DNA of 64,000 bases, from NCBI GenBank assembly GCA_965204745.1, contig OZ242010.1, positions 3,360,001-3,424,000 of the forward strand, written 5' to 3'. The stretch comes from Candidatus Latescibacterota bacterium. Its GTDB lineage: Bacteria; Latescibacterota; UBA2968. Positions within the stretch are counted from its first letter, which is position 1. Every line of letters begins with the position of its first letter. The position numbers and the translations under genes are program-made. A model generated the notes under the pieces. That model was not told the DNA's origin, ran no database searches, and was given only the letters and a program-made list of their open reading frames with translations. Shown piece by piece: positions 39,082 to 52,993 of the stretch.

Positions 39082-40572
39082 CTACAATACCTTCAACTCT
39101 TCTGGAGAAGCCCAGAACGGTACGTATTTCATGTGCTTGGGCGATGCCTCGGGAACATTTGCAACGATGAAACCCGCCTCCACAGCGTCGCGAATGAGGC
39201 GCGAGGCCATCGACCGATTTTTTTCCTTAATCCCGAATCGCTCGCGAATTGATGTGTTTGTCAAGTAGTCTCGCTGAATATATTTCAGACAAGCGTGCAG
39301 ATAACACGCCCGCACTCGCTCTGCCTTGTCCATATCGGACAGCGTCTTACGGGAAAACAAGACAGTGCGCGTGAACCCTTCCGGATTTTCAAAAAGCGGG
39401 GCGGGCAACTGGTGAAGTTCAACTTCAAAAACGACCTTGTCGATCCCGCTTCCTCGTTCCTCGCAAATTCGAAACCGCCTTAATAGCGAAGCCAGTTTCT
39501 CGTTGCGGGATTTCGGCGGACTATCGAGGAAGCGTTGGGTATCCACCAGCGGCTCGCCTGGATTCGTAATCTCAATGCGGTCTTTGAATATCTCTACCAT
39601 CGGCCCGGCACCAGTTGCGAAAAAGTCCTGATGGATAAGCGCGTTCGCCACCAATTCACGCACGGCTAATTTGGGAAATTCTGGGATGGTCTGGCGCAAT
39701 GCCTGCTCAATGACCTCGTGCGTAGGCAACCGGGCGTTGATATAATCTATCAGCCCCTCAAAACCAGAAGCGTAACCCCTTACGCCTTCCCGCTCGCCCA
39801 ATGCCTCAAGACGATCATTGCCGCGATACTCGATGACACGCATGGCCTTGCGCTTTAGCCTCGGAAAATCACTGAGGTTTTTAGCAAACAAAATCGCTCC
39901 CAAATTCGTGATGTTGAATCCACCCGCCTCGCAGGGCGCGATCAACCCATCCCGCTGTAGCGCATCGAGGATGGCGGCGTGACCGTCGGGTAGCGGTACA
40001 TTGAGCAACTCGAAGTACTTCGGATAGTCAAATTTGAGCAGGATGTCCCCACCACTTAGCCGTTCGGCTGCGATGCCTTCTTCAAAGCTCACCCGGTCAA
40101 ACACGCGCCAGAGCGTCCGTTCCTTTTCGGGATAATCTTTGAGTTTTCTCGTCGTGCTACTTACCCGGATATATTCAACGCCCTCGAACGCGACTGGATG
40201 GTGCGACGCACGGTCAATCTCCAGAAGCACAACGCGCTGTCCATCAGCCACAATTTCGTGAAAACGGAAATCGATGCGAGGTTGCAACAGCCGTAGCAAC
40301 CAAGTCTCGAGCGGCTCGTTGCCCTTTTTCGCAGTGGTCGGCGAGAAGGCCGTACCGGCGACGACATGCGTTCCGTTTTCGATTCCCCAAAGCAGGTATG
40401 CATGGGTCTTGCCGTGCAAAGCCGCGGCGTTGGCCAGTGCGGAGATGTACTGCCCGATGGCATGCGGTTGACGGTGGTTGACTTTGAACTCAACCCAATC
40501 GGTCTCGTGCGGTAGGTTGCACAATTCGCGCACCAAACCGAGGAGGTAATCATGGTCTCGGTTGTTGATCAT
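39082..40572 (-). CDS. Schlafen/AlbA_2 + HATPase_c_4 + wHTH protein (R-M associated)
   Basis: ETDWVEFK, ISALAN, AVRELVANALIHQDF, SRNEKLA, CEERGSGIDK, KYVPFWA. Confidence 0.9.
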   Translation of the reverse strand: MINNRDHDYLLGLVRELCNLPHETDWVEFKVNHRQPHAIGQYISALANAAALHGKTHAYLLWGIENGTHVVAGTAFSPTTAKKGNEPLETWLLRLLQPRIDFRFHEIVADGQRVVLLEIDRASHHPVAFEGVEYIRVSSTTRKLKDYPEKERTLWRVFDRVSFEEGIAAERLSGGDILLKFDYPKYFELLNVPLPDGHAAILDALQRDGLIAPCEAGGFNITNLGAILFAKNLSDFPRLKRKAMRVIEYRGNDRLEALGEREGVRGYASGFEGLIDYINARLPTHEVIEQALRQTIPEFPKLAVRELVANALIHQDFFATGAGPMVEIFKDRIEITNPGEPLVDTQRFLDSPPKSRNEKLASLLRRFRICEERGSGIDKVVFEVELHQLPAPLFENPEGFTRTVLFSRKTLSDMDKAERVRACYLHACLKYIQRDYLTNTSIRERFGIKEKNRSMASRLIRDAVEAGFIVANVPEASPKHMKYVPFWASPEELKVL

Positions 40573-40589: not shown

Positions 40590-40865
40590 TTAAGCTTGGT
40601 CGCTTTCGTCAAAACTCGGCACCTCGGCAATCGCATCGTCAAGCGACCTGATCGCTTCCCGCACATCCACTTGCCCGGTGACCACATCGGCGATCAGGCG
40701 CGTGCGGTATTCGCTCAACAATTCGATCTCCCGCTGGGCGCCGTCCATGTCGTCGTCCAGATTCCCGACGTGCTTTTCAAGCCGCCGGTCTTCGGTTTCG
40801 ATAAACACAATGCCGCTTCCGTCGCTGTTTCGCACGGCGCGGATTTCATTGATTTCATCCTGCAT
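40590..40865 (-). pseudogene. Chimeric small ORF ending in the HsdS C-terminal conserved helix (hsdS 3' stub)
   Basis: AQREIELLSEYRTRLIADVVTGQVDVREA nearly identical to the ends of both hsdS genes; unrelated N-terminal ~40 aa. Confidence 0.75.
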
Positions 40866-41713: not shown

Positions 41714-42757
41714 TCAGAGAGGCTCTATCCAGTTTTTCTCGGCGAGCACCTCGAGGGCAATGCCGAGTTGTCGGCGGGTGAACTGGCTTTTGCGCTCATT
41801 CCACGTATATGTTCGCTCGGCGACCTCGGCAAAGGTCGATGCCCGCTCCTTGCGGACAACCCAATGGACGGTTGCCAACAATTCCAAGCCGAAGGCCGAC
41901 TCGAATCCCTCGATAAGCGCAGACACCCTGTCAATGTGGCCGGGCGTTTGGGGCGTATCCGCGAGAAAGGTGCGTGCATCCTCGAGCGCACCGGGTACCA
42001 GTTTTAATTCCTTGTGGGGGGCATCGCCTCCGTCTGCGTAGCCGAACACAAAGTGTCCTTCAATGGCATGCAAGACGTGCCGGAGGTTTTCGGCGTAAGG
42101 TCCGTAAATGCCTTTGGCGAACCGCAGTTTCAACGGCTCGCCAGCGGTCTGCATGAAGTACATGAGTTTGTGTACTTCCAGCAGGGTAATGAATGGATCC
42201 AACAGACCGCGCAGGTAGCGGTCCATTAGCCCGATAAGCGCGGCCCGTCCCGCGGTCATTTTCGGGACCTCGCGCGAACGATTGGCCCTCTTGTCCACCG
42301 GGCCTCCGCCCGGCTCAAATACGACGACCTTCACGTCGTCAAATTTCTCCAAAGCCGCCTGCACTCGCCTGCGAACTTCCGACCAGTCCAAGCCGCCCAG
42401 TCCACTGCCGAGCGGGGGAATGGCAATGGAGCGGATGCCGCGCGCTCGTATTTCCTGTGCGAGCGATGCCAAACCGGATTCGATATCCTCCATGCGGCTT
42501 TTGCCTCGCCAGTGCCGTTTGGTGGGAAAGTTGATGATGTAATGGGGATGGGTAAGTTGCCCGGTCTCGAAGACGAACACCTGTCCCGGTTGCATTTCGT
42601 CGCGCTTGCACCGGGCGGCGTAGGCTTTGAAGTTCTCGGGAAAGGCACGCTTGAATTGTAGCGCGATGCCACGCCCCATCACCCCGACGCAGTTGACGGT
42701 ATTGACCAAAGCTTCGGCATCTTCCGCGAGGATGTCGCCGGTCTTGTATTTGAGCAT
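41714..42757 (-). CDS. darG: DarG antitoxin (macrodomain DNA ADP-ribosylglycohydrolase)
   Basis: VNTVNCVGVMGRGIALQF, IINFPTKRHWR, PPLGSGLGGLDW, YGPYA, GLELLATVHW; ATG 42757. Confidence 0.92.
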   Translation of the reverse strand: MLKYKTGDILAEDAEALVNTVNCVGVMGRGIALQFKRAFPENFKAYAARCKRDEMQPGQVFVFETGQLTHPHYIINFPTKRHWRGKSRMEDIESGLASLAQEIRARGIRSIAIPPLGSGLGGLDWSEVRRRVQAALEKFDDVKVVVFEPGGGPVDKRANRSREVPKMTAGRAALIGLMDRYLRGLLDPFITLLEVHKLMYFMQTAGEPLKLRFAKGIYGPYAENLRHVLHAIEGHFVFGYADGGDAPHKELKLVPGALEDARTFLADTPQTPGHIDRVSALIEGFESAFGLELLATVHWVVRKERASTFAEVAERTYTWNERKSQFTRRQLGIALEVLAEKNWIEPL

Positions 42758-42776
42758 GGTCGCTCTCCTTTTGCGG

Positions 42777-43421
42777 TCAATAATACCAATCGGGCTTGAT
42801 TTCGACGGGTGGTTTATAGGCGGCGGTTCCAAGAGCCACCATGACCTGCTGATAAACCTGCTGCGACAAGACGCCGATGCGCGAGATCAGTGCCCAAGGA
42901 AATTGTTGCTCAATTAAAAATTCCGCCTGTTTGCCTTCCTTACACTGCCGCCAGCCGGTGGCTTGCACTGCATTCCAGTCGATCTCTCCCAACTGCGTCA
43001 AGTCGCACCGGTCCTCAAAGTAATAGGCACCGGCATTCGAAAGCGTGAACGCCCAACGCTTCCCATGTTTCTTTGCCCAATCAACGGTTTGATATAAATC
43101 CGCCTCCAGATGAACGATGGGGCTTTGCCCGCCGCGATAGGTCAATTTTGGATGATTCGCTCGGTGAATCACGTAGAGCATAATAGAACGCGGACAGAAG
43201 TAGAATGGCACACAGTCGCCTACGCGCAAGTCTGGATAACTGCTCAGGTGAGTCGTAAGGCGGCGTTTCTTGATGTTGTTCATGCCAATCGCCGTGCCGA
43301 GTGGTTGGCGTTTAAGAACCTCCGAGTCGCACCAGAGATAGTTGTCTACAATAATGGATTTGAGCCGGTCCACATGAACAATATGGTATATCCTTGGATG
43401 AGGGGGTACCCGCATAGTCAA
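42777..43421 (-). CDS. darT: DarT toxin (DUF4433 DNA ADP-ribosyltransferase)
   Basis: IYHIVH, VPFYFCPRSIMLY, SNAG, KQAEFL, WYY. Confidence 0.92.
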   Translation of the reverse strand: MTMRVPPHPRIYHIVHVDRLKSIIVDNYLWCDSEVLKRQPLGTAIGMNNIKKRRLTTHLSSYPDLRVGDCVPFYFCPRSIMLYVIHRANHPKLTYRGGQSPIVHLEADLYQTVDWAKKHGKRWAFTLSNAGAYYFEDRCDLTQLGEIDWNAVQATGWRQCKEGKQAEFLIEQQFPWALISRIGVLSQQVYQQVMVALGTAAYKPPVEIKPDWYY

Positions 43422-43424
43422 ATC

Positions 43425-44084
43425 TCAGTCAGCCGCTTCGCGCACATCCACTTGGCCGGTGACCACATCGGCGATCAGGCGCGTGCGGTATTCGCTCAAC
43501 AAGTCGATCTCGCGCTGGGCACGCGCCATAGCGGCGTCAATGGCGGCGGTCTGTTTGTCCAAATACGCGGCGATAGCGGCTTGCTCGGCGAGGGATGGGA
43601 GAGGTTGCACCATACCACCGATAAATTGCCAGTCTGCACGCGGCATCTTCGCTCCAAATGTCGAAGCGTTGATGGCATCTATAACTGGCTTTGATCGCAT
43701 CAGATACTCCAGATAACCGGGGGACAGAGTACTAGCACGAGGTCGCAATACCAAAAATTCGCCTACGCAGACACCCGGCCGATTAGGGCGTGTAACCTTC
43801 GCCAAATAAGGCCGCAACTTGCCGAACAGCACATCGCCAGCCTTGAATCGCTTAACCTGACTGTCAAAGACCACATCCGGCTCGGATTCGCTATACTTCC
43901 CCGTCCAACTTTCAACGTGTTCCATCGCAAGGTAGATTTCGCGCTTCCAGCGTTTGTGTGTTTGGTCAGCAACATTCTCTACGGAAAACTTTAACCGCCG
44001 CACATCCCAATGCGAGGGCACATCGCCGAGCCACTCCACGCCCGAGGGCTTGTAGTGGGGATAGGGTTTGAGGTCGGAGGTCAT
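43425..44084 (-). CDS. hsdS: Half-size Type I HsdS (single TRD)
   Basis: MTSDLKPYPHYKPSGVEWLGDVPSHW, one TRD, PSLAEQAAIAAYLD...VVTGQVDVRE; 219 aa. Confidence 0.85.
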   Translation of the reverse strand: MTSDLKPYPHYKPSGVEWLGDVPSHWDVRRLKFSVENVADQTHKRWKREIYLAMEHVESWTGKYSESEPDVVFDSQVKRFKAGDVLFGKLRPYLAKVTRPNRPGVCVGEFLVLRPRASTLSPGYLEYLMRSKPVIDAINASTFGAKMPRADWQFIGGMVQPLPSLAEQAAIAAYLDKQTAAIDAAMARAQREIDLLSEYRTRLIADVVTGQVDVREAAD

Positions 44085-44305
44085 GGCTTTACGAAACGAG
44101 GCTTGGGGTAATGACGCAGGCAATGCGGGCAACGCTACGGGGGAAATGATACTCAATTTTTGGCATGGTGGCAATTCTATGAGCGGTTGGGGCGTGAGGC
44201 GATTTCGAGAAATTGAGATCGCGCCTTGTCCATCAATGCAAAATGGGGTATATTACTTTTCAAGTACGCCCATTGCCAGTTGCACCAAAACATAAGGAGA
44301 GCAGA

Positions 44306-45442
44306 ATGAACAAGACGGAAGGGACGATGGAAGACCTACAAAGGATCGCAAAGGCGGGACGGGAATACTTCGATAGATACGGCGAACTCAATTTGAGGTG
44401 GTATGTAGAAAGATTTGTGATGCCAGTGTTGAAGGATGTGTTGAAAAACTTGTGCCTCGAAATCGAAGAACGTCATAAGGTTGACGAACCTGAAGACGAA
44501 AAAGACAATTTTGTCATTCACTACACGAGTATCGGTAATCTCGTTTCCATGCTTAAACGAGAAGCAAAGAACAGACAGAATGCCGCGAAGAACGAACAGA
44601 ATAAAGTGAAGGATGAACAGAATGCAACGGAGGACAAACAGGATGTAGCGAAAGACGAACAAGAATCTTCAAAAGACGAACAGAATGCAATAGGCGAACG
44701 GAATGCGTCATTGAGACTGTACGACTCCGTACATTTCAACGACCCAGACGAGGGCAATTACTTTTTTCGCAATCTGAACCTACCAAAAAAATACGCTTGG
44801 CTAGGCGACAAACAGGAATCCCACGCTTATATCGCCTCTTTTATTTTTCCTGCTACTGAAAAAAATAGCGACAATCTCGTGTTTTGGCGCACCTACGGAA
44901 AAGAAGGCGAAGGTTGTTCACTGAAGCTACGTATCCCGAGGGATCGATTACGGAAAGTTCTTTATGGTGACTGTAAGGTGAACTCTACATGGAAGGATCT
45001 GCTGACTGTATTGGATGATCTATATTCTGTGCTAGATCCGTTGTTAAACATTGATAAACAGTCACTTAAAGAAATTATCCAAAAAAATTTAGCAGAGGTC
45101 ATTTGGAAATCTTTGGCGAGACTCAGATACTTGTACAAGAGTGAAGCGTACAGGTATGAGCAAGAATGTCGTTTTGTTATTCCTGAATTAGATGCTGACA
45201 AAGACAAAATCTGCTTTGAGGATAAGGAACATGACAATTCTCCTCTACACATAAGACATTATTACGAAGACGATGCCCTCAAGGTTAAAAATATATTGAC
45301 TACTGACAGTTTAATCACGCTCGGGCCTTGTGTGCCTGATGATCCCTACAACATGAGCTATTATCTCGATAGCCTGCTGAGAAAAGCAGGATTGTTTGGC
45401 CCGGAAATCAAGATCTCCGAAATATCCTATCGAAAACCTTGA
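44306..45442 (+). CDS. DUF2971-family protein with inserted heptad repeats
   Basis: HYTS, FNDPDEG, FWRTYG, YKSEAYRYEQECR, ITLGP; RBS aaggag; AT-rich. Confidence 0.8.
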   Translation: MNKTEGTMEDLQRIAKAGREYFDRYGELNLRWYVERFVMPVLKDVLKNLCLEIEERHKVDEPEDEKDNFVIHYTSIGNLVSMLKREAKNRQNAAKNEQNKVKDEQNATEDKQDVAKDEQESSKDEQNAIGERNASLRLYDSVHFNDPDEGNYFFRNLNLPKKYAWLGDKQESHAYIASFIFPATEKNSDNLVFWRTYGKEGEGCSLKLRIPRDRLRKVLYGDCKVNSTWKDLLTVLDDLYSVLDPLLNIDKQSLKEIIQKNLAEVIWKSLARLRYLYKSEAYRYEQECRFVIPELDADKDKICFEDKEHDNSPLHIRHYYEDDALKVKNILTTDSLITLGPCVPDDPYNMSYYLDSLLRKAGLFGPEIKISEISYRKP

Positions 45443-46877
45443 TGGCATAACGCCAAATCCCGCGCCATTTGGCTTGCGGCGGCTCTGTGTGTTCTTTGAT
45501 GAGATAGGGCGGATTTTCCGCATCCCCCTGTGCGTGGCGTTGGCGGAAAGAGCAATGGGGATGGCATTCGTCATTGATGATTCGCGTCTCGGCGGTGACA
45601 AATTGGTAATCCTGTTGCCGCACCAACGGCCACCACTCCTCGGCGAGCAAGTAGCGGAGCATCAAATTCACCTCCATCCCGGCAACGCTCAAACTGAACG
45701 GAAATACATTTTGGTTGCCGATCCGTTCTTCGGGGGGCAAGTTGCTGACGTAAGACGGATCGTCCAGCGACCCGTCCAATTCCATGACCACCATGCTCGA
45801 ATTGTATTGTTTGCTACAACGCAGACATTGATGATAGGGCGTGACGAGGTGTGCGCGCCAATGCGCTGAAAACAAGCGGTCTTTGCGGCGGTCTGTTTCC
45901 ACTGCGATACCGCCATCAATAACCGGAATCAAATGCGCTTGTGCGATATAATTTAGGACGTCGCGGGCAACAGGCCGGTCGACGCAACTAAAAAGGAGAT
46001 CGCAATCCAACGCGGCCTTGTAAGCCTCGCTGTTGTGAACCGAAACCGGCAAAGCCGTTATTTGGATGTTTTCAGCGGTCGCATTGCGCCGCATCGCTCG
46101 CGTTGCCAAATCGACCTTTAATTGCCCGATGTCTCGCACTGTTCCGTAAAGCAAGCGGTCGAGATTGTGCTCCTCAACTTTATCGGGGTCGATCAGAGTA
46201 ACTTGCGCGATTCCGATTCGCGCTATGGCTTCAGCGACAATACAACCGACGCTACCGAGACCGACAATGCCGATTTTCAACCGCGAGATTGTATTCTGCG
46301 ATTCGCTTCCCCATGTATCAAAAGTGCGCCTGAGTATATCCCTCCTTAGTGGAGGCGGCGCACTGTCGTCATGAAAATAATTTTTGTAGGACTGCGGCCC
46401 GCCAACGCGGACATTCTCGCACCAACGGCGGCGCATCTGCCCGCCCTCTCTCTCCCAAAACCGCGCACTCCAGTAACCATCGGTTCCAATTGTCAACCCC
46501 ACCAACGGCAAGCCAGTCGCCCCCGCCGGATACGCCAGAACATCCCGCTCTGCTTCAACATCGGTAGCACTCATCCCCTGCCATCCATCGCTTGGATGGC
46601 TGTGCATAAACGCCAAACCCGCTTGTTTGTCCCGCGCTATTTTTATGGCCCGTGCGAGGTACGCAGGCTCGAAACTGACGTTGCCGTGCAACAGTCGCTC
46701 GCCTTTTTTCGGGAGGATGATCTCATCTATCAGCGCGGTGCGGCGCAACCGCCCCGTGGAAGGACGCCACACCGCGAAGCACAGATCTTCCTGATGTTCG
46801 TCGCGCCGATAATGCTGCAACAAATGCTCATTGGCGGTCGAATCCGCCTCGGCGGTGAGAACTGTCCCAAAACTCAT
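45408..46877 (-). CDS. JAB/MPN-like peptidase - E1 (ThiF) fusion, BubCD-like
   Basis: QEDL...MHSHP...MSATD JAB motif; GIVGLGSVG, DPDKVEEHNLDR, CVDRPVAR, CLRC; ATG 46877 overlaps the E2 stop (ATGA). Confidence 0.88.
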   Translation of the reverse strand: MSFGTVLTAEADSTANEHLLQHYRRDEHQEDLCFAVWRPSTGRLRRTALIDEIILPKKGERLLHGNVSFEPAYLARAIKIARDKQAGLAFMHSHPSDGWQGMSATDVEAERDVLAYPAGATGLPLVGLTIGTDGYWSARFWEREGGQMRRRWCENVRVGGPQSYKNYFHDDSAPPPLRRDILRRTFDTWGSESQNTISRLKIGIVGLGSVGCIVAEAIARIGIAQVTLIDPDKVEEHNLDRLLYGTVRDIGQLKVDLATRAMRRNATAENIQITALPVSVHNSEAYKAALDCDLLFSCVDRPVARDVLNYIAQAHLIPVIDGGIAVETDRRKDRLFSAHWRAHLVTPYHQCLRCSKQYNSSMVVMELDGSLDDPSYVSNLPPEERIGNQNVFPFSLSVAGMEVNLMLRYLLAEEWWPLVRQQDYQFVTAETRIINDECHPHCSFRQRHAQGDAENPPYLIKEHTEPPQAKWRGIWRYAIKVFDRIFRRS

Positions 46878-47245
46878 ACATCTTTCCAAATTCGTCGCAA
46901 GTGTTCGTTGATGTAGGCGTGCATGTGCTTTGTCGGTAGCTGATCCCATATATCCCCCGGGGGTCTGCTCATTGCGAGCCATTCGCGCCCATTGGCGTTG
47001 TATCTTTCAACCACACCACCTTTCCCGTCGTCGATTGGCGGTGTGACATGGATCCAGTGAGGGGGATAATCGGGATACCCGGTTTCTTGGAAACTGACGC
47101 CTACCGTGACCTTTTCGCCCCTGTGGGAACCGGTCTCGACCGTGTAGTCAAAAACAACCACTTTTCCGCGCGGGCTATCAGACCACGATGTTTCATATCC
47201 CAAGGCTTCCAACTCTGCCTTTATCCGGTTGATGTCGTCGGACAT
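46874..47245 (-). CDS. Prokaryotic E2/UBC-fold protein lacking Cys (BubB-like)
   Basis: GYPDYPPHW and WLAMSR motifs as in prokaryotic E2 family E; no Cys in 123 aa. Confidence 0.75.
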   Translation of the reverse strand: MSDDINRIKAELEALGYETSWSDSPRGKVVVFDYTVETGSHRGEKVTVGVSFQETGYPDYPPHWIHVTPPIDDGKGGVVERYNANGREWLAMSRPPGDIWDQLPTKHMHAYINEHLRRIWKDV

Positions 47246-47256
47246 TTTGCTGTACC

Positions 47257-47496
47257 TCAGGCTACTGGCGTGGGTTGGTTGGGAATTGTGAGGAACACAT
47301 TGTCTTCCTCCAGATCAACCCAGTTATCCCAGCCATACTCTCCTTTGCCGCCTTGCAGAAGGTAATCCTCCGGCTTACTGGGAATGGCTCCTCTCTTTTC
47401 AGCGAGTTCCAGAATATCGTGCGCGACGACTCCCACATACGGCATCGCCATTTCCATGCCGTTCACTTTGAGCGTAAAGGATTTTTGCTCAGCCAT
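47257..47496 (-). CDS. Ubiquitin-like (multi-ubiquitin-type beta-grasp) protein 2
   Basis: 79 aa FTLKVNG...DILELA...WVDL...FLT; RBS aggagg; ends PTPVA. Confidence 0.75.
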   Translation of the reverse strand: MAEQKSFTLKVNGMEMAMPYVGVVAHDILELAEKRGAIPSKPEDYLLQGGKGEYGWDNWVDLEEDNVFLTIPNQPTPVA

Positions 47497-47537
47497 TTTA
47501 TACCTCCTAATGATGCTGTCGGACATTGAAGAAAAAG

Positions 47538-47777
47538 CTACGCTACGGGCGTGGATTGATTGCGAATCGTGATGAACACATTGTCTTCCTCCAGATTGAC
47601 CCAGCTATCCCAGCCATATTGTCCTTTGTCGCCTTGCAGAAGGTAATCCTCCGGCTTACCGGGGATGGCGCCGTTCTTCTCAGCGAGTTCCAGAATATCG
47701 TGCGCGACGACTCTCGCAGTTGACATCGTCATTTCCATGCCATTCACCTTGAGCGTGAAGGATTTTTGCTCAGCCAT
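47538..47777 (-). CDS. Ubiquitin-like (multi-ubiquitin-type beta-grasp) protein 1
   Basis: 79 aa, 65/79 identical to the neighbour by manual alignment; RBS aaggagg; ends STPVA. Confidence 0.75.
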   Translation of the reverse strand: MAEQKSFTLKVNGMEMTMSTARVVAHDILELAEKNGAIPGKPEDYLLQGDKGQYGWDSWVNLEEDNVFITIRNQSTPVA

Positions 47778-47865: not shown

Positions 47866-49977
47866 TCATTTGCCATTGGCTCCGACGATCGCTACGAGTG
47901 CCGCTTCATTCTCGCGCTCCAACGCCATGACTTCGGCGCGTATTTCGGCGCGTGAGCGCAGCGGTTGCGGCTTGTAGAAATGTCGCGTGAAGCTGATCTC
48001 GTAGCCGATCTTGACGCTTTTCGGGTCGTGCCAGGCATCCGGCGCGTAGGGCAACACCTCGCGGCGCAGAAAGCCCTCGACGCCGCCCTCGGCGAGCAGT
48101 GGCACCTGTTCGGTATCGCGCAACTCGCTGTCCGGCTCGTATTCGACCACGCATTGCCGGCCATTCACCTCCGCCTCGATCAGCCCGCGACTCGGCTCCG
48201 GCTCTGCCTTGCCCGGCCGGTGGATCTTTTTGATGACCGGCGCCGCGGCTTCGTCGCGGAACGCCAGTGCCGTTTGCAACAGTTTCTTTCGCCTAGCTGT
48301 CAGCGTAATGCCGCGTCCGATGGCATCCGCAAACAGGTTGAAATCGCGGTGCGGGCCATGGCCCATCGCGCCAGCGACTTGCTCAACGGCCTCGGCGAGC
48401 GGTCCTTCGTCCGCTTCCTCGCAGGCATCGCGGAAGCGCGAGAGATGCTCAGGCGACAACTCGACAGCGACGCGCAGGGGTCGCTCAATCGTTACGCGCC
48501 AGTACCCCAAAGCCCGATTGGGAAAAATCTTCGAGTGCTCGGTTTCCTCAAAGGCGAGAAACGCATCGCAGACGCGGCGGATGTCGTCCTCGGACAACGC
48601 GCAGTTCTTATTGCCGAGGTTTTTCCGCAGTGGACGAAACCACTCGGTGGCGTCGATGAGTTGCACCTCGCCCTGCCGATGCGCGGGCTTGCGGTTGGTC
48701 AGCACCCAGATATAGGTGGCGATGCCGGTGTTGTAGAACATGTTGAGCGGCAGGGCGACAATGGCCTCCAAATAGTCGTTTTCGATGATCCAGCGGCGGA
48801 TGTTGCTCTCGCCCTGCCCAGCGTCGCCGGTGAACAGGGAACTCCCGTTGTGGACCTCGGCAATGCGGCTGCCGAGCGCGGTGTCGCGCTTCATCTTGGA
48901 CAGCATGTTGACGAGGAACAGCATCTGCCCATCGCTGGAGCGGGTGAGCAGGGAATAGGCCGGGTCGCCGTCGTGCGCGATGATGAAGCGCGGATCAGCT
49001 ATGCCGCGCTTGCCGCCCAGGCGGTCGAGGTCGTTCTTCCAGCTCTTGCCGTAGGGCGGATTGCTGAGCATGAAGTCGAACTGGTGGGCAGGGAAAGCGT
49101 CGTTGGCGAGGGTCGAGTGTTCCGGCCCGCCGACGATGTTGTCCGCCGCGCTGCCCTCGCCCTTGAGCAACAAGTCGGCTTTGCAAATCGCGTAGGTCTC
49201 GGCGTTGATCTCTTGACCGTAGAGATGCGTGGAGACGTTCTTGCCGCGTGCTCGGGCGAGTTCTTGCAGGGTTTCCTCGGCCACGGTCAGCATGCCGCCG
49301 GTTCCGAGCGCGCCGTCGTAGAGCAAGTAGGTGCTCGACTCGATGGCGTCGGCCACCGGCAGGAAAATGAGCTTCGCCATCAACTTGACCGCGTCGCGCG
49401 GGGTCCAGTGTTCGCCGGCTTCCTCGTTGTTCTCCTCGTTGAACCGCCGCACCAACTCCTCGAAAATCGTGCCCATGGCGTGGTTGTCCAAGCCGGGATG
49501 CGTCGCCACCGGGTAGGGGCTGAGGTTGATCTCCGGCGACAGAAACTTCTCGATGAGCGCGCCGAGCACGTCCGCGTCTGACAAGCGCGGAATCTGGTTG
49601 CGAAACTCGAAGTTCTTCAAGATGTCCTGCACATTGGACGAAAACCCGTCCAAGTAGATCTCAAAGTCGGCGCGGAGTTGTTGCCGGGTCGCACGGGAAC
49701 GGAGATCGCGCAACGTGAACTGAGACGCATTGAAAAAGGCATGCCCCGCGGCCTGCTTGAGGGCCGCTTCCTGTTCGACAATGCCTTGGTCGTTGAGCCG
49801 GGCCTGCATGGCGAGAACGGCACGCTTGGTCGGTTCGAGCACCGCGTCCAGCCGCCGAATCACCGTCATCGGCAAAATGATGTCGCGGTACTTGCCGCGC
49901 ACATAGAGATCGCGCAACACATCGTCGGCAATACTCCAGATAAAGTTGGGAATGCGATTGAGTTGGTTGTTTTGCAT
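47866..49977 (-). CDS. hsdM: Type I R-M methyltransferase subunit HsdM
   Basis: FIWSIADD, EAGEHWTPRD, YGQEIN, SNPPYG, FYNTGIATY, KIGYEISFTRHFY. Confidence 0.95.
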   Translation of the reverse strand: MQNNQLNRIPNFIWSIADDVLRDLYVRGKYRDIILPMTVIRRLDAVLEPTKRAVLAMQARLNDQGIVEQEAALKQAAGHAFFNASQFTLRDLRSRATRQQLRADFEIYLDGFSSNVQDILKNFEFRNQIPRLSDADVLGALIEKFLSPEINLSPYPVATHPGLDNHAMGTIFEELVRRFNEENNEEAGEHWTPRDAVKLMAKLIFLPVADAIESSTYLLYDGALGTGGMLTVAEETLQELARARGKNVSTHLYGQEINAETYAICKADLLLKGEGSAADNIVGGPEHSTLANDAFPAHQFDFMLSNPPYGKSWKNDLDRLGGKRGIADPRFIIAHDGDPAYSLLTRSSDGQMLFLVNMLSKMKRDTALGSRIAEVHNGSSLFTGDAGQGESNIRRWIIENDYLEAIVALPLNMFYNTGIATYIWVLTNRKPAHRQGEVQLIDATEWFRPLRKNLGNKNCALSEDDIRRVCDAFLAFEETEHSKIFPNRALGYWRVTIERPLRVAVELSPEHLSRFRDACEEADEGPLAEAVEQVAGAMGHGPHRDFNLFADAIGRGITLTARRKKLLQTALAFRDEAAAPVIKKIHRPGKAEPEPSRGLIEAEVNGRQCVVEYEPDSELRDTEQVPLLAEGGVEGFLRREVLPYAPDAWHDPKSVKIGYEISFTRHFYKPQPLRSRAEIRAEVMALERENEAALVAIVGANGK

Positions 49978-49996: not shown

Positions 49997-52993
49997 TTAT
50001 CGGTAGGTCAGATCAAACACTTTATCGGCCAGCCAGCGTTTGAACGCTGCGTTGTCCGAGTATTGCTTGTAGAGTTCGGTGTCGTCGGCAAGCAGATCGG
50101 TGATCGCTTTCTCCAATGCCCTGTCGTGCTCGATGCGGGTGTTCTGCGCGTCCGCGTGTTGTCGCGCATTGAGATAGGCATGGTCCGCCGCGACCCGTTG
50201 CGGCACATCCTCGGTGATCAGCCGGCGGATGCGGTCCGCATCGGTCCACGGAATATCGCCGAACAAATCGTTAAATTCCCGCAGAATGTTGGAGAGCAGG
50301 TCCATTTCCGGCTCGGGTTGGTACCCGCCGCCACTCGCGGGCACTGGCGCGATTTCGGCGTCCTCGTCGGGCAAGAGGATTTGCAGGGTCGCCTGTTTCT
50401 CGGCGCGGTAGCTGTCCATGTCGATGGCGTTCTCAATGCCCAGCGACATATCCTCGCCCGCGGGCGTCGGCAACTTGGGAATGAGAAAGGTCAGAAAAAT
50501 GGACAACTTCTCCCACTCCGCATTCTTGTATGGCAACACCTGCGCCAGGAAATTGTAGGCGCGGGTAAAGGCTTTGGCCTTGCTCTTGAAATCGACCTGC
50601 CCGTCCTCGTCCAAGTCGCGGCGATAGATGGTCACGCACCCGTCCAAAATCGGATCGAGAACAGCGCGGTCGTCGCCGTTCAAATACGCCGCCACCAGCG
50701 CATCGACTCGCTCTTCGGAATAGACCTGCTGGCCGTCTAAGGCGGCCTTGAGGTCGTGCAACTTGTCCGGGTCGGTTTCGTCCGCCAAGATGGTGGTGCG
50801 GTAGTACGCGGCAAAGGCGTCTTTGATGGCATCGGCGTCGTTGTGGAAATCGAGCACAAACGTATCGCGCTTGGCCGGGTGGGCGCGGTTGAGGCGCGAC
50901 AGGGTCTGGACGGCGCGGATATCGGACAGCACCTTATCCACGTACATCGTGTGCAACAACGGCTCGTCGTAGCCGGTTTGGAACTTGTCCGCACAGACGA
51001 GAAACCGATAGGGGTTTTGCTGAATTTTGCGGGCGATCTGCGACGACGGAAACCCGTTCAACCGCGCTTCGCTCACCTGCTCGTCGCCGTACTCGACCTC
51101 GCCGGAAAAGGCCACGATGGCTTTGTGCGGGCTGTTGCGCTCGGCGAGATAGTCGCAGATGGCGCGATAGTAAGCTACTGCCATCTCGATGCCGCCGGTG
51201 ACGACCATGGCACGCGCCTGTCCGTCGATTTTGCACGGGGCCAGCACCTGCTCGTGGAAGTGATCGACGATGATCTCGGCTTTGAGGCGGATGGCCCGGC
51301 TGTGGGTTTCCACATACCGGATGAGCTTTTTGCGCGCCTTGTTGGCGTCGAACTCCGGGTCGTCCGCGATGGTCTTGGCGAGGCGGTAGTAGCTCGTTAC
51401 CGGCGTGTAGTGCCCGAGCACGTCCAAGATGAACCCCTCTTGGATGGCCTGTTTCATCGCATAGCTGTGAAAGGGCAGGTGCCGGATCGCGCCGTCGGGC
51501 TGTGGCGCGGGTGTGCCGAACAACTCCAGCGTCTTGTTCTTGGGCGTGGCGGTGAAGGCGAAATAACTGGCGTTGGCGAGCAGGCGCCGCTGTTCGATGA
51601 TGCGGTTGATCTGATCTTCAAACGTCTCGTCCTCATCCGCGGCGCGATCCCCCAAGACATGGGCCATAGCCGATGCCGTGCGCCCGCCTTGGCTGGAGTG
51701 GGCTTCGTCGATGAGGATGGCAAAGCGGCGGCTCTGATGCTCGTTGTCGATCTCGTCCAAGATGAACGGGAACTTCTGCACGGTGGAGATGATGATTTTC
51801 TTGCCCTCGCCGATAAAGCGGCGCAAGTCCCCAGAATTTTCAGCGTGGCCCACGGTCGCGCCCACTTGCGCGAACTGCCGGATGGTGTCGTTGATCTGCC
51901 GGTCCAAGATGATGCGGTCCGTCACGACGATGATGGAATCAAAAACCGGCTTGCCACCCTGTTCCAAGCCGATGAGCCGGTGCGCCAACCACGCGATAGA
52001 GTTGGACTTGCCACTGCCGGCCGAGTGCTGGATGAGATAGCGTTGCCCAACGCCGTGCTCGGTGACCGAGGCCAACAGTTTCCGAACCACGTCCAATTGG
52101 TGATAGCGCGGCCAGATTTGCGTCTTGGTTTTGCGCCCGGTCTCGGGGGCCGTGGATTCTACCAGCAGGGCGTAGTTTTCCACGATGTCGGTCAGGCTCC
52201 GCCGGGTCAGCACGTCGCGCCACAAGTAATCGGTCTTGATGCCGTTGGGGTTGGGCGGGTTGCCCGCGCCGTCGTTGTAGCCCTTGTTGAACGGCAGGAA
52301 CCATGACGCCTTGCTGTTGAGGTGCGTGCAGAACAGCACTTCGAGGTCGTCCACGGCGAAGTGGGCCATGCAGCGACCGAGTCGGAAGAGTGCCTCTTTG
52401 GGATCGCGGTCGCGTTTGTATTGCTCGACAGCATCGGCGGCGGTCTGTTTGGTAAGGCTGTTTTTCAACTCAAAGGTCGCCACCGGCAGGCCGTTGATGA
52501 ACAGCGCGAGGTCGAGGGTCAGCCGCGGGTTGGCATTGCTGTACGACAACTGGCGCGTGACCGAAAAGCGGTTCTGCTCGTACAGGGTTGTTGCCTGCGG
52601 GTTGCCCGGCGAGGGCGTGCCATAAAAGAGCGCGAGGGCGTGCGGCCCGTGCTTGACGCCATTGCGGAGGACTTCGACGACACCGCGCTTGCCCACTTCG
52701 TTTTTCAGCCGGGCGAGAAACTTGCGGCGCGCCGGGCTATCCATATCCAAAGACAGCGCGTCGGCGAGGTGCGGTTGCGTGGCCTTGAGAAACGCGGTCA
52801 ACTGCGCCAAATCCACGCAGTGCTCGCGGTCGTACTCGTCGGAGCAACCGTTGAGCCATCCGGCTTCGTAGGTGGCCGGGCGTTCCCGTACATCAGCGGC
52901 GTCCGGCGCGTCGGCCCTGTGGGTCAGCATCGCACAGACGCGCTCCTCCAAGCCGCGTTCAGTGGTGTCGGTGGTCATGGCAACTCCAGTCAA
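49997..52993 (-). CDS. hsdR: Type I R-M restriction subunit HsdR
   Basis: DLALFINGLPVATFELK, QHSAGSGKS, IDEAHSSQ, FTATPK, KFQTGYDEP, QTLSRLNR; likely ATG at 52978. Confidence 0.95.
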   Translation of the reverse strand: MTGVAMTTDTTERGLEERVCAMLTHRADAPDAADVRERPATYEAGWLNGCSDEYDREHCVDLAQLTAFLKATQPHLADALSLDMDSPARRKFLARLKNEVGKRGVVEVLRNGVKHGPHALALFYGTPSPGNPQATTLYEQNRFSVTRQLSYSNANPRLTLDLALFINGLPVATFELKNSLTKQTAADAVEQYKRDRDPKEALFRLGRCMAHFAVDDLEVLFCTHLNSKASWFLPFNKGYNDGAGNPPNPNGIKTDYLWRDVLTRRSLTDIVENYALLVESTAPETGRKTKTQIWPRYHQLDVVRKLLASVTEHGVGQRYLIQHSAGSGKSNSIAWLAHRLIGLEQGGKPVFDSIIVVTDRIILDRQINDTIRQFAQVGATVGHAENSGDLRRFIGEGKKIIISTVQKFPFILDEIDNEHQSRRFAILIDEAHSSQGGRTASAMAHVLGDRAADEDETFEDQINRIIEQRRLLANASYFAFTATPKNKTLELFGTPAPQPDGAIRHLPFHSYAMKQAIQEGFILDVLGHYTPVTSYYRLAKTIADDPEFDANKARKKLIRYVETHSRAIRLKAEIIVDHFHEQVLAPCKIDGQARAMVVTGGIEMAVAYYRAICDYLAERNSPHKAIVAFSGEVEYGDEQVSEARLNGFPSSQIARKIQQNPYRFLVCADKFQTGYDEPLLHTMYVDKVLSDIRAVQTLSRLNRAHPAKRDTFVLDFHNDADAIKDAFAAYYRTTILADETDPDKLHDLKAALDGQQVYSEERVDALVAAYLNGDDRAVLDPILDGCVTIYRRDLDEDGQVDFKSKAKAFTRAYNFLAQVLPYKNAEWEKLSIFLTFLIPKLPTPAGEDMSLGIENAIDMDSYRAEKQATLQILLPDEDAEIAPVPASGGGYQPEPEMDLLSNILREFNDLFGDIPWTDADRIRRLITEDVPQRVAADHAYLNARQHADAQNTRIEHDRALEKAITDLLADDTELYKQYSDNAAFKRWLADKVFDLTYR

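Follow-up and report, generated by a model that had tools for sequence, protein, structure and literature searches.

A Bub-like cassette for ubiquitin-like proteins with a conserved C-terminal alanine in Candidatus Latescibacterota and related loci

Gene content of the cassette and conservation of its proteins

A 64,000-nt stretch from a Candidatus Latescibacterota bacterium (assembly GCA_965204745.1, contig OZ242010.1, positions 3,360,001 to 3,424,000), hereafter the window, contains a gene cassette related to the bacterial ubiquitination-like (Bub, formerly '6E') pathways. Two genes for small ubiquitin-like proteins (Ubl1 and Ubl2), one for an E2-like protein and one for a fused JAB/JAMM peptidase and E1 enzyme (JAB-E1) follow each other in this order on the minus strand. 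In the open reading frame (ORF) map of the window they lie between hsdM of a Type I restriction-modification (R-M) system and a half-size hsdS, which agrees with a preliminary description made from the same DNA. That description had overlooked a fifth gene, which encodes a DUF2971-family protein and converges on the JAB-E1 gene with a 35-bp overlap of the 3' ends, as well as the absence of BubE/DUF6527. The JAB-E1 start that it had placed at 46982 was rejected, since the ~35 codons that it adds share DNA with the E2 gene and hold stop codons in many homologous loci; the true start was set at 46877, where the ATG overlaps the E2 stop codon as ATGA. For comparison, 33 related loci (L002 to L034) were used, all of them from metagenome-assembled genomes (MAGs) and with E1 identities of 60–88%. 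Coordinates are listed in Table 1.

Neither Ubl was matched in searches of Pfam, NCBIfam, PADLOC or PDB sequences (the last with single sequences at E ≤ 10), and the Pfam model Multi_ubiq (PF14452) gave no match to the window Ubls even at E ≤ 10. Ala-terminated relatives do match this model, namely those of Clavibacter (43.9 bits) and Rhodococcus (25.4 bits), with a further relative, P0092, at 24.4 bits (cut-off 24.5). The Clavibacter and Rhodococcus matches tie the Ala-terminated group to the multi-ubiquitin family. An AlphaFold2 (AF2) model computed from a 38-sequence alignment has a predicted local distance difference test score (pLDDT) of 83.1 and the element order strand-strand-helix-strand-strand-strand, followed by a free tail (residues 73–79). 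The top Foldseek matches of this model are a multi-ubiquitin protein of Citrobacter (9d5a), BubA in complex with BubCD (9ea8_B) and the ubiquitins of Bacteroides and human, all at a probability of ~1.0 and at E ~4e-3, a modest value for a small domain. Further matches include a Bil Ubl and other multi-ubiquitin proteins (9d5b_A with a template modelling score of 0.69 and a root-mean-square deviation of 1.8). As judged from the predicted structure, the small proteins are beta-grasp Ubls.

Ubl1 and Ubl2 are 82% identical; 13 of 79 positions differ, four of them in the hypervariable residues 17–22. Per-column entropy over 90 close Ubls marks residues 2–8, 14–23 and 72–75 as variable. Among the proteins P0001 to P0089, variation is focused on residues 14–23, which form the second strand and the loop ahead of the helix and recur in the versions STARVV, PYVGVV, REPRVV and HQKLV. 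The window and the locus L003 each carry one copy of the STARVV/TARVV type and one of the PY(V/L)GVV type, so that the two genes have the look of a long-kept pair and not of a recent duplicate. Twin Ubls, as noted in the preliminary description, do not define the cassette: 27 of the 33 related loci have a single Ubl gene. In two loci (L006, 4611–6091; L007, 777–2257) the whole Ubl-E2 pair is tandem-duplicated, giving the order Ubl-E2-Ubl-E2-JAB/E1.

Activation at a C-terminal Gly is treated as a near-rule for ubiquitin-like modifiers. Both window Ubls end in TPVA; their last Gly is G55 and none is found in the final 24 residues. Among close homologues (n = 89, 43–139 aa, E ≤ 1e-3), 82 end in Ala, with TPVA in 51, TQVA in 22 and other variants in the rest. 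The remaining seven comprise six proteins in which V/I-A is followed by 3–7 unconserved residues and one broken sequence. Similarly, V/I-A is found in all 32 intact Ubls that adjoin an E2 gene in the related loci (L019 is frameshifted), and the stop codon follows directly in 25 of them. Tails of 2–6 extra residues occur in L025, L026, L028 and L033, and the two-domain Ubls of L031 and L034 have a tail of 8 residues. In L004, the Ubl continues in frame into the E2 (...TPVA-TIPE-MSDN...). A search for longer Ubl forms found one protein, the database entry P0090, which is a second in-frame Ubl-E2 fusion (...TQVA-QVQID-VDSA...). Two candidates among the E2 matches, P0297 and P0316, were left out of the fusion count, as they resemble read-throughs of a frameshift. 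A79 is one of only three invariant columns of the 38-sequence alignment, and by entropy the tail T-P/Q-V-A belongs to the best-conserved parts of the 90 close sequences.

In a wider survey, the Ubl profile was compared with 1.84 billion representative proteins. This gave 154 matches at E ≤ 1e-3, of which 149 were analysed; six long repeat proteins (false positives) and 28 proteins without an alignment to the profile end were excluded, leaving 115 countable relatives. At the last profile position, 101 of them have Ala, 8 have Ser, 3 have Gly and 3 have some other residue, the minority classes being less certain because rows ending 1–2 positions short were extrapolated. The 101 Ala rows divide into 68 that end there, 24 with tails of 1–12 residues and 9 with longer extensions. 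Two-domain Ubls account for 18 of the 115 and carry V-A on the last domain only. In all five canonical Prok-E2_E operons fetched, the equivalent point is occupied by Gly (TEG followed by a stop codon, QQG followed by RE, and three fusions joined after TEG, TEG and GEG). A conserved Ala followed by a stop codon, a junk tail or the next enzyme is what a site of processing and activation would be expected to show. The comparison thus supports the C-terminal Ala as the conserved, exposed or processed terminus of the whole clade; on the aligned sequences it is not a quirk of the window's genome.

The JAB-E1 protein consists of a JAB domain (~residues 1–165) and a ThiF/E1 adenylation domain (~190–489). 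Its best solved relative is BubCD of Citrobacter (9ea4, E = 1.4e-25, residues 73–364 of the long ORF), and a 32-sequence JAB-E1 profile likewise has BubCD as its best match among PDB sequences (E = 1.3e-27). The next-best matches are MoeB, eukaryotic E1s, UBA5, ThiF and MccB. Invariant residues were read from an alignment of 32 family members. They include the JAMM set E30, H92, H94, S103 and D106, with E30/H92/H94/D106 nearly equal in number to E28, H91, H93 and D104 given for BubCD in the available text of bioRxiv 10.1101/2024.11.21.623953. In the adenylation domain, G203/G206/G208 (G-x-G-x-x-G), D230, R241, K254 and D300 are invariant, R241 being aligned with R227 of BubCD. Also invariant are a four-Cys set (C351xxC354 together with C438 and C442, i.e., CxxC...CxxxC) and the tyrosines Y358 and Y376 (32/32 for the latter). 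The crossover loop after C351xxC354 is free of Cys and contains Y376 in the sequence DGSLDDPSY.

The E2-like gene is always located between Ubl and E1, is usually coupled to the latter by ATGA and is twice fused to the former. These features support the assignment of its product as an E2. In a 33-sequence alignment, the invariant columns are Y57-P58..P61-P62-H63-W64.H66..P69...D73 and S93-R94.P96-G97..W100-D101. The family has no conserved Cys; the window copy is Cys-less altogether and contains YPxYPPHWIH and WLAMSR. The motif PPHW...SR is specific to the Ala-terminated clade. The family numbers 649 proteins at E ≤ 1e-3, and no Pfam domain is found among the 120 matches listed. In a language-model atlas, the E2-like protein is placed at 0.93–0.94 beside unnamed clusters, and one further cluster has 26% Prok-E2_E members. 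NCBIfam has no model for the Ubls, the E2 or the DUF2971 protein, and PADLOC returned nothing for the Ubls or the E2.

Several statements of the preliminary description are borne out by this wider comparison: the Cys-less E2 with Ser in WLAMSR, the E1 motifs GLGSVG (GxGxxG), NLDR, CLRC and DDPSYV, the TPVA ends lacking a nearby Gly, the beta-grasp fold that it had assumed for the small proteins, and, on the sequence match to BubCD, the relationship to Bub. The terminal residue that it had noted in two proteins recurs in most of the homologues. Of the Pfam domains that it had expected, only ThiF is matched strongly (E = 8.9e-31); Prok-JAB is matched weakly (E = 6e-3), Multi_ubiq is missing from the window Ubls, and Prok-E2_E stays below its cut-off.

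The DUF2971 gene, genomic setting and distribution

Table 1. Features of the defence island around the cassette (positions in the window)
Feature	Coordinates	Strand	Basis or remark
hsdR, Type I R-M	49997-52993	minus	ORF; upstream of the cassette
hsdM, Type I R-M	47866-49977	minus	ORF; upstream of the cassette
Ubl1, 79-aa beta-grasp ubiquitin-like protein (predicted), end ...STPVA then stop	47538-47777	minus	ORF, AF2 and Foldseek
Ubl2, 79 aa, end ...PTPVA then stop	47257-47496 (Met at 47496)	minus	ORF; extendable upstream to 47526
E2-like protein, 123 aa, Cys-less	46874-47245	minus	ORF and family alignment
JAB/JAMM peptidase-E1 fusion, BubCD homologue, 489 aa	45408-46877	minus	ThiF and BubCD matches
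DUF2971-family protein, 378 aa, probable DarT-like ADP-ribosyltransferase	44306-45442	plus	Converges on the JAB-E1 gene
Half-size hsdS, one target-recognition half	43425-44174	minus	PADLOC Specificity_I, E = 4.4e-49
DarT	42777-43421	minus	Pfam DarT, E = 1.5e-64; PADLOC DarT, E = 4.9e-68
DarG	41714-42832	minus	Pfam Macro, E = 5.1e-28; PADLOC DarG, E = 3.4e-135
91-aa hsdS end-fragment	40590-40865	minus	Repeats the hsdS C-terminal end
Schlafen/AlbA_2 + HATPase_c_4 protein	39082-40572	minus	Closes the defence island

A DUF2971 homologue lies directly beside the E1 gene in 31 of the 33 related loci; 30 of these genes face the E1 gene, that of L025 runs in the same direction, the L013 copy has a frameshift and the L024 copy is cut short. 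Among the 30 convergent pairs, 24 share 16–50 bp at their 3' ends, and in 15 the shared stretch is exactly 35 bp, the value of the window. Only one DUF2971 gene of this type is present in the window's genome. Pfam DUF2971 (PF11185) matches 15 of 26 family members at E ≤ 0.01 (best E = 1.4e-6), and the window protein reaches 18.3–21.0 bits against a cut-off of 22 bits. Invariant in the alignment are H72-Y73-T74, D146-P147.E149-G150, S178, K278, Y282, E285.E287.R289 and a C-terminal S..Y-R. The AF2 model (pLDDT 86.6) places HYT, Y175/S178 and ExE on strands or at strand ends, in the order expected for an ADP-ribosyltransferase (ART) core. A Lys/Asp/Glu/Gln/Asn-rich low-complexity insert (~44560-44710, residues ~85–135, pLDDT 53–55) follows the first strand; its length varies widely among the homologues and it is missing in several.

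DUF2971 has been described as an ART-like family near DarT that belongs to the H-Y-E clade and has a conserved Tyr and ExE (PMC12522546, available text). A single-gene DUF2971 protein, Aristaios, confers abortive-infection phage resistance in Lactococcus according to the accessible part of PMC11381338. Outside the helical part of the window model, structural matches are Tpt1 and DarT; in the Foldseek comparison with the PDB nothing was found at E ≤ 0.001, and DarT (7omv) appeared only at E = 2.4. An hhalign comparison of the family with three DarT sequences gave no support (probability 0.7% over 26 columns), and the DUF2971 profile matched only DnaB-like helicases among PDB sequences (E 0.28–0.45). 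The gene product is probably an ART. A predicted complex of E2 and Ubl with the DUF2971 protein as partner, made without controls, scored 0.12 against a mark of 0.32 and weighs neither way.

The surroundings of the cassette in the window form a dense defence island. PADLOC Specificity_I matches the window hsdS only over model positions 211–440 of 448. The 91-aa ORF beyond DarTG repeats the C-terminal ~45 residues of an hsdS, among them the near-identical REI(D/E)LLSEYRTRLIADVVTGQVDVREA; DarTG therefore seems to have been inserted into the conserved C-terminal part of hsdS or to have recombined with it. The hsdS genes of L002, L004 and L008 have both halves, unlike that of the window. Genes resembling Schlafen/AlbA_2 + HATPase_c_4 are found after DarTG in L002 and also in the flanks of L006 and L027.

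Across the related loci, the genomic neighborhood is not uniform. Genes of hsd type lie within ≤6 kb in six of the 33 loci (L002, L004, L008, L009, L024 and L030) and in none of the other 27. The cassette is located between hsdM and hsdS in the window, L004 and L008, with homologous hsdM/hsdR flanking it in the latter two, and DarTG is near it in two of the 33 loci. A scan of 117 ORFs that flank the cassette in the 28 other loci most often returned Type I specificity subunits and ResIII (three each), followed by HSDR_N, Fic, AbiEii-like AAA_21, FRG and IrrE-like peptidases (two members each). Housekeeping genes such as leucyl-tRNA synthetase, LptE and adenylosuccinate synthetase are found as well. 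Given the few hsd neighbors and the varied flanks, the gap between hsdM and hsdS is a recurrent landing site and not the only one; the preliminary idea of a cargo of Type I R-M loci is therefore not upheld.

The locus titles name Latescibacterota, Chloroflexota, Acidobacteriota, Nitrospirota, Binatota, Thermodesulfobacteriota and Pseudomonadota as well as sponge-named candidate taxa. A quick maximum-likelihood (ML) tree of the JAB-E1s does not follow taxonomy, which, together with the E1 identities of 60–88% across phyla, indicates that the unit moves horizontally. Near-identical DNA words are present in sequencing runs labelled sponge metagenome, with shares of up to 0.48. The spread of the cassette looks like horizontal transfer within one habitat. 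A phage collection searched with JAB-E1 gave no match.

The nearest JAB-E1 relatives in a plasmid collection are actinobacterial (34–41% identity, E 1e-61 to 2e-75), and all others have ≤30% identity. Four of these plasmid operons were inspected, those of Rhodococcus sp. NBC_00294, Clavibacter californiensis pCCa, Mycobacterium avium pP7a and Nocardioides sp. QY071 pCHL. All four have the order Ubl-E2-JAB/E1, a Ubl that ends in V-A followed by a stop codon, and an E2 with PPHW and H-S-R, and all four are without DUF2971 or DUF6527. Two of the four Ubls are two-domain proteins. An ImmA/IrrE (CapP-like) peptidase is annotated upstream of the Rhodococcus and Nocardioides operons. In one actinobacterial operon, a convergent pair of PIN-domain and helix-turn-helix genes takes the position that DUF2971 has in the sponge-type loci. 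These neighbor genes were noted for 5566-6760 of L042 (Rhodococcus plasmid) and 1035-2066 of L047 (Nocardioides plasmid). Two plasmid operons that are more distantly related, those of Bradyrhizobium and the archaeon Halorarius, carry a Gly close to the Ubl end, and that of Bradyrhizobium has an annotated DUF6527. In a quick ML tree of 38 JAB-E1s, 29 sponge-type and the four actinobacterial Ala-type sequences group together (SH-aLRT, a Shimodaira-Hasegawa-like approximate likelihood ratio test, 97) and the Gly-type sequences fall outside; with long outgroup branches and a quick tree only, this grouping is supportive only. In RefSeq, members of the Ala-type clade are named 'multiubiquitin domain-containing protein', 'hypothetical protein' or 'ThiF family adenylyltransferase'.

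The genome of the window (5.48 Mb, 97.65% completeness) has no match to PF20137 (DUF6527/BubE). Across 31 genomes searched, the vicinity of the cassette is free of DUF6527, and 27 of these genomes lack the gene altogether. Five matches in the other four genomes are all away from the cassette (nearest ~27 kb), and two of them directly follow canonical Bub operons of one Paracoccaceae MAG (G002). This genome carries an Ala-type cassette with DUF2971 (L029) as well as two canonical Gly-type operons (L035 and L036), which have a Ubl ending in ...TEG, an E2 with WSRHY, a JAB-E1 and DUF6527 just downstream. One of the canonical operons has a gene for an IrrE-like peptidase beside it on the other strand. 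The presence of both types in one genome invites the idea that the last residue helps to keep co-resident systems apart, and the two may be orthogonal.

Proposed function and alternative explanations

On balance, the cassette and its neighbor are probably a mobile five-gene module that represents a previously undescribed branch of Bub, with a Ubl activated at its C-terminal Ala. The proposed course is as follows. The JAMM peptidase of JAB-E1 would cut right after ...T-P/Q-V-A where the Ubl is tailed or fused to the E2; the window Ubls would need no trimming, Ala79 already being the last residue. The E1 domain would then adenylate the Ala79 carboxylate using ATP. The Ubl would pass through oxyesters, with Tyr376, invariant in the E1 crossover loop, as the likely first carrier and Ser93, invariant in the Cys-less E2, as the likely second; the E2 would hand the Ubl to a target. 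The DUF2971 protein, in the place of BubE/DUF6527, would most likely be an ADP-ribosylating effector or a regulated target, and the whole unit would most likely act in phage defence or stress response.

The finding is moderately surprising. Cap2, a bacterial E1/E2 protein of CBASS, the antiphage signaling system based on cyclic oligonucleotides, conjugates cGAS via a C-terminal Gly or Ala, and the cGAS proteins of Cap2/Cap3 operons end in Gly or Ala, the Ala-ending form being conjugated (PMC10097602, available text). This precedent makes an Ala terminus feasible and less unprecedented, for which reason the surprise is only moderate. The preliminary description had called the terminal Ala unusual; its conservation stands, and its novelty is reduced by CBASS. 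Literature text searches found no beta-grasp Ubl family with a conserved terminal Ala beyond a Bil tail and the CBASS cases, although the published table of 544 Bub operons may include members, and no Bub-like operon paired with DUF2971 was described in the texts searched. The ART partner and the loss of BubE add interest.

A number of results weigh against the proposed function. The E2 assignment of the 123-aa protein is weak by sequence and supported by context: Pfam Prok-E2_E matches the window protein at E = 1.1e-3 with 19.1 bits, below the 25-bit cut-off, and reaches E ≤ 0.01 in only four of 33 members. A comparison with seven canonical E2 domains by hhalign gave E = 0.016 and a probability of 2.8% over 83 columns. 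The E2 single sequence had no match among PDB sequences at E ≤ 10, and the E2 profile had a single, chance-level one (E = 1.5). The hhalign register is sensible, with YPxYPPHWIHxxPP over YPxxxxDMFYVxP and W.AMSR over WQRWSR, so that SR falls on the SR of WSRH. If this register is right, Ser93 would take the position of the catalytic Ser, and the accessory residues differ, with Pro at the His of S-x-H (+2) and His63 at the Asp column. In the E1, HMM (hidden Markov model) alignments to BubCD end ahead of the crossover loop. In a MAFFT alignment with three canonical Bub E1s, the 'DP' directly before Y376 is aligned, and Y376 itself stands ~8 residues before their Tyr column in a loop that is 4 residues shorter. 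Because the columns differ, the equivalence of Y376 with Y370 of BubCD is graded as probable, not proven. As to the terminal residue, E. coli cGAS with a Gly-to-Ala exchange still forms a thioester and shows reduced downstream transfer in the available text of PMC10097602, and by analogy Ala might generally be the less good substrate. L022 has no DUF2971, L002 has only a non-significant trace at the expected position, and the gene is missing from the actinobacterial sister operons. Finally, the authors who named Bub, in the available text of a 2026 paper (PMC13373217), describe no phage protection by Bub as demonstrated and suggest that it may mediate a wider stress response; the antiphage role that the preliminary description had taken as established for Bub is not so.

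The distribution of DUF2971 bears on how far it belongs to the unit. Its absence from the actinobacterial operons and from two of 33 loci shows that it is not essential to the conjugation core. A self-sufficient Ala-type Bub core of three or four genes, with DUF2971 as an independent defence neighbor that co-travels on the mobile island, is a minority possibility to be taken seriously. It is favored by the sister operons with Ubl-E2-JAB/E1 alone, the loci in which DUF2971 is missing (L002, L022), broken or truncated (L013, L024), and the phage resistance conferred by DUF2971 on its own in Lactococcus (PMC11381338, accessible part). However, the gene keeps its place directly beside E1 in 31 of 33 loci from many phyla and with differing flanks, and the 3' overlap is not only frequent but of one exact length in half of the convergent pairs. 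The window's genome has just this one gene of the type, and in a clade without BubE, DUF2971 fills a vacant operon place. These points argue against a merely independent neighbor.

The flanking genes bear on the biological role. A general stress or DNA-damage response, or plasmid and island maintenance, in place of phage defence is unlikely. What the authors of the Bub name suggest (PMC13373217, available text) fits such a role, as do actinobacterial relatives that reside on plasmids beside ImmA/IrrE-type regulators and the housekeeping flanks of some sponge-type loci. The window module, in contrast, is surrounded by Type I R-M, DarTG and a Schlafen/AlbA_2 ATPase; hsd genes flank six and DarTG two of the 33 loci, other flanks encode Fic, AbiEii-like and ResIII proteins, and one DUF2971 protein has tested antiphage activity (PMC11381338, accessible part).

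Conjugation itself is called into question by MoeB, ThiF and MccB among the JAB-E1 matches and by the weak E2 assignment. The E1 might perform a non-conjugating adenylation of the ThiF/MoeB/MccB kind, as in sulfur-carrier or peptide modification, or the Ubl might act non-covalently with its Ala serving in binding. Known sulfur carriers, however, end in Gly-Gly. A JAMM peptidase with its full catalytic set is fused to the E1, and the variable tails and E2 fusions start exactly after the Ala, in line with processing and activation there. BubCD, the nearest relative with a solved structure, is a proven conjugating E1 (bioRxiv 10.1101/2024.11.21.623953, available text). An explanation without Ala conjugation is thus improbable. 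Decay of a Gly-type Bub operon into a non-functional relic, with a neutral or disabling Ala, is hardly credible as the origin of the cassette: the Bub hallmarks Gly, S-x-H and BubE are missing and L019 is frameshifted, but catalytic-type residues are invariant in 32–33 sequences at 59–93% identity, the E2 has 649 relatives at E ≤ 1e-3, and the Ala itself is among the most conserved positions.

On a further reading, the ART and the Ubl machinery might act in a single chemical pathway. The DUF2971 protein might ADP-ribosylate phage or host DNA, or the Ubl, and the oxyester-based E1/E2 pair might join the Ala-terminated Ubl to a hydroxyl of this ADP-ribose, or the ART might cap the Ubl. This is a long shot. 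Cross-talk of ADP-ribosylation and ubiquitin is known from eukaryotes and pathogens, with DTX3L/PARP9, the DELTEX ligases and Legionella SidE, which serve as an analogy only. Such a pathway would give bacteria an equivalent of the ubiquitin-ADP-ribose hybrid marks of eukaryotes, and the Ala end with a matching E1 pocket would also insulate it from Gly-type Bub, as in the MAG that carries both.

Apart from this, a widespread clade of beta-grasp Ubls that keeps Ala (649 E2 relatives, ~100 Ubl clusters at 50% identity, co-varying E1 and E2) would allow E1 adenylation pockets and JAMM peptidases to be compared, as a natural experiment, in the way they recognize the final residue. It could offer a route to Ubl systems orthogonal to the Gly type, one genome having both. 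The oxyester-based chemistry of Bub, if it applies here, would extend to a third, BubE-less architecture. The tightly paired DarT-like partner would give this pathway family a concrete effector that can be tested, and the plasmid members in the culturable Rhodococcus, Clavibacter and Nocardioides make the clade experimentally reachable.

Relationship to known systems

The DUF2971-like protein would share its family with Aristaios, and it carries the invariant HYT...Y/S...ExE pattern in keeping with DarT-like proteins in general. It differs from DarT/DarTG by having no macrodomain antitoxin partner, and from DarT and Aristaios by its large helical inserts and N-terminal helical domain and by the tail-to-tail pairing with a Ubl-conjugation operon.

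Bil operons (Chambers et al., bioRxiv 10.1101/2023.09.26.559546, available text) share the set of Ubl, E2, JAB and E1 and the trimming of precursor tails by the JAB peptidase. Catalytic Cys residues and tandem adenylation domains in the E1 are features of Bil. The terminal Ala98 of the Bil Ubl is a tail that is removed to expose the conserved Gly97, whereas the Ala of the cassette is itself the conserved end, without a Gly.

In Type II CBASS (Jenson et al., Nature 2023, available text), an E1/E2 enzyme likewise activates a Gly or Ala terminus, a JAB peptidase reverses or processes the product, and the genes form a defence operon with an effector. The conjugated protein, however, is a signalling enzyme (cGAS/CD-NTase) and not a beta-grasp Ubl, thioesters are formed on Cys and the E2 is fused to the E1. 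Ala is a minority there and near-universal in the cassette clade.

The closest known system is Bub, for which Type I Bub (6E.1), the Citrobacter BubAB-BubCD-BubE operon of Ye, Gong, Chambers and Corbett (bioRxiv 10.1101/2024.11.21.623953), serves as the reference. Shared with it are the JAB/JAMM-E1 fusion, which has the same catalytic residues and gives the best PDB match, and a predicted beta-grasp Ubl that resembles multi-ubiquitin proteins, in one or two domains or copies. A small Cys-less protein with an invariant Ser would correspond to the E2 of Bub, and in the Cys-free crossover loop of the E1 an invariant Tyr is the probable counterpart of the Bub Tyr. The occasional Ubl-E2 fusion that requires JAB cleavage is also shared: in L004 and P0090, the junction right after Ala parallels BubAB, which BubC cuts after Gly229 according to the available text of the same report. 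The two differ as follows. Ubl and E2 are fused in Bub (BubAB) and encoded by separate genes in the window and 32 of the 33 loci. The E2 of Bub has S-x-H with an Asp, and that of the cassette S-R-P with a His at the aligned accessory position. The four-Cys set of the E1 (CxxC...CxxxC) belongs to the cassette clade. BubE/DUF6527, which the report in its available text gives for all 544 operons, is replaced by a convergent DUF2971 in the sponge-type loci and by nothing on the actinobacterial plasmids. The conserved end of the Ubl is Gly in Bub, as in 107 BubAB proteins of the same source, and Ala in the cassette clade.

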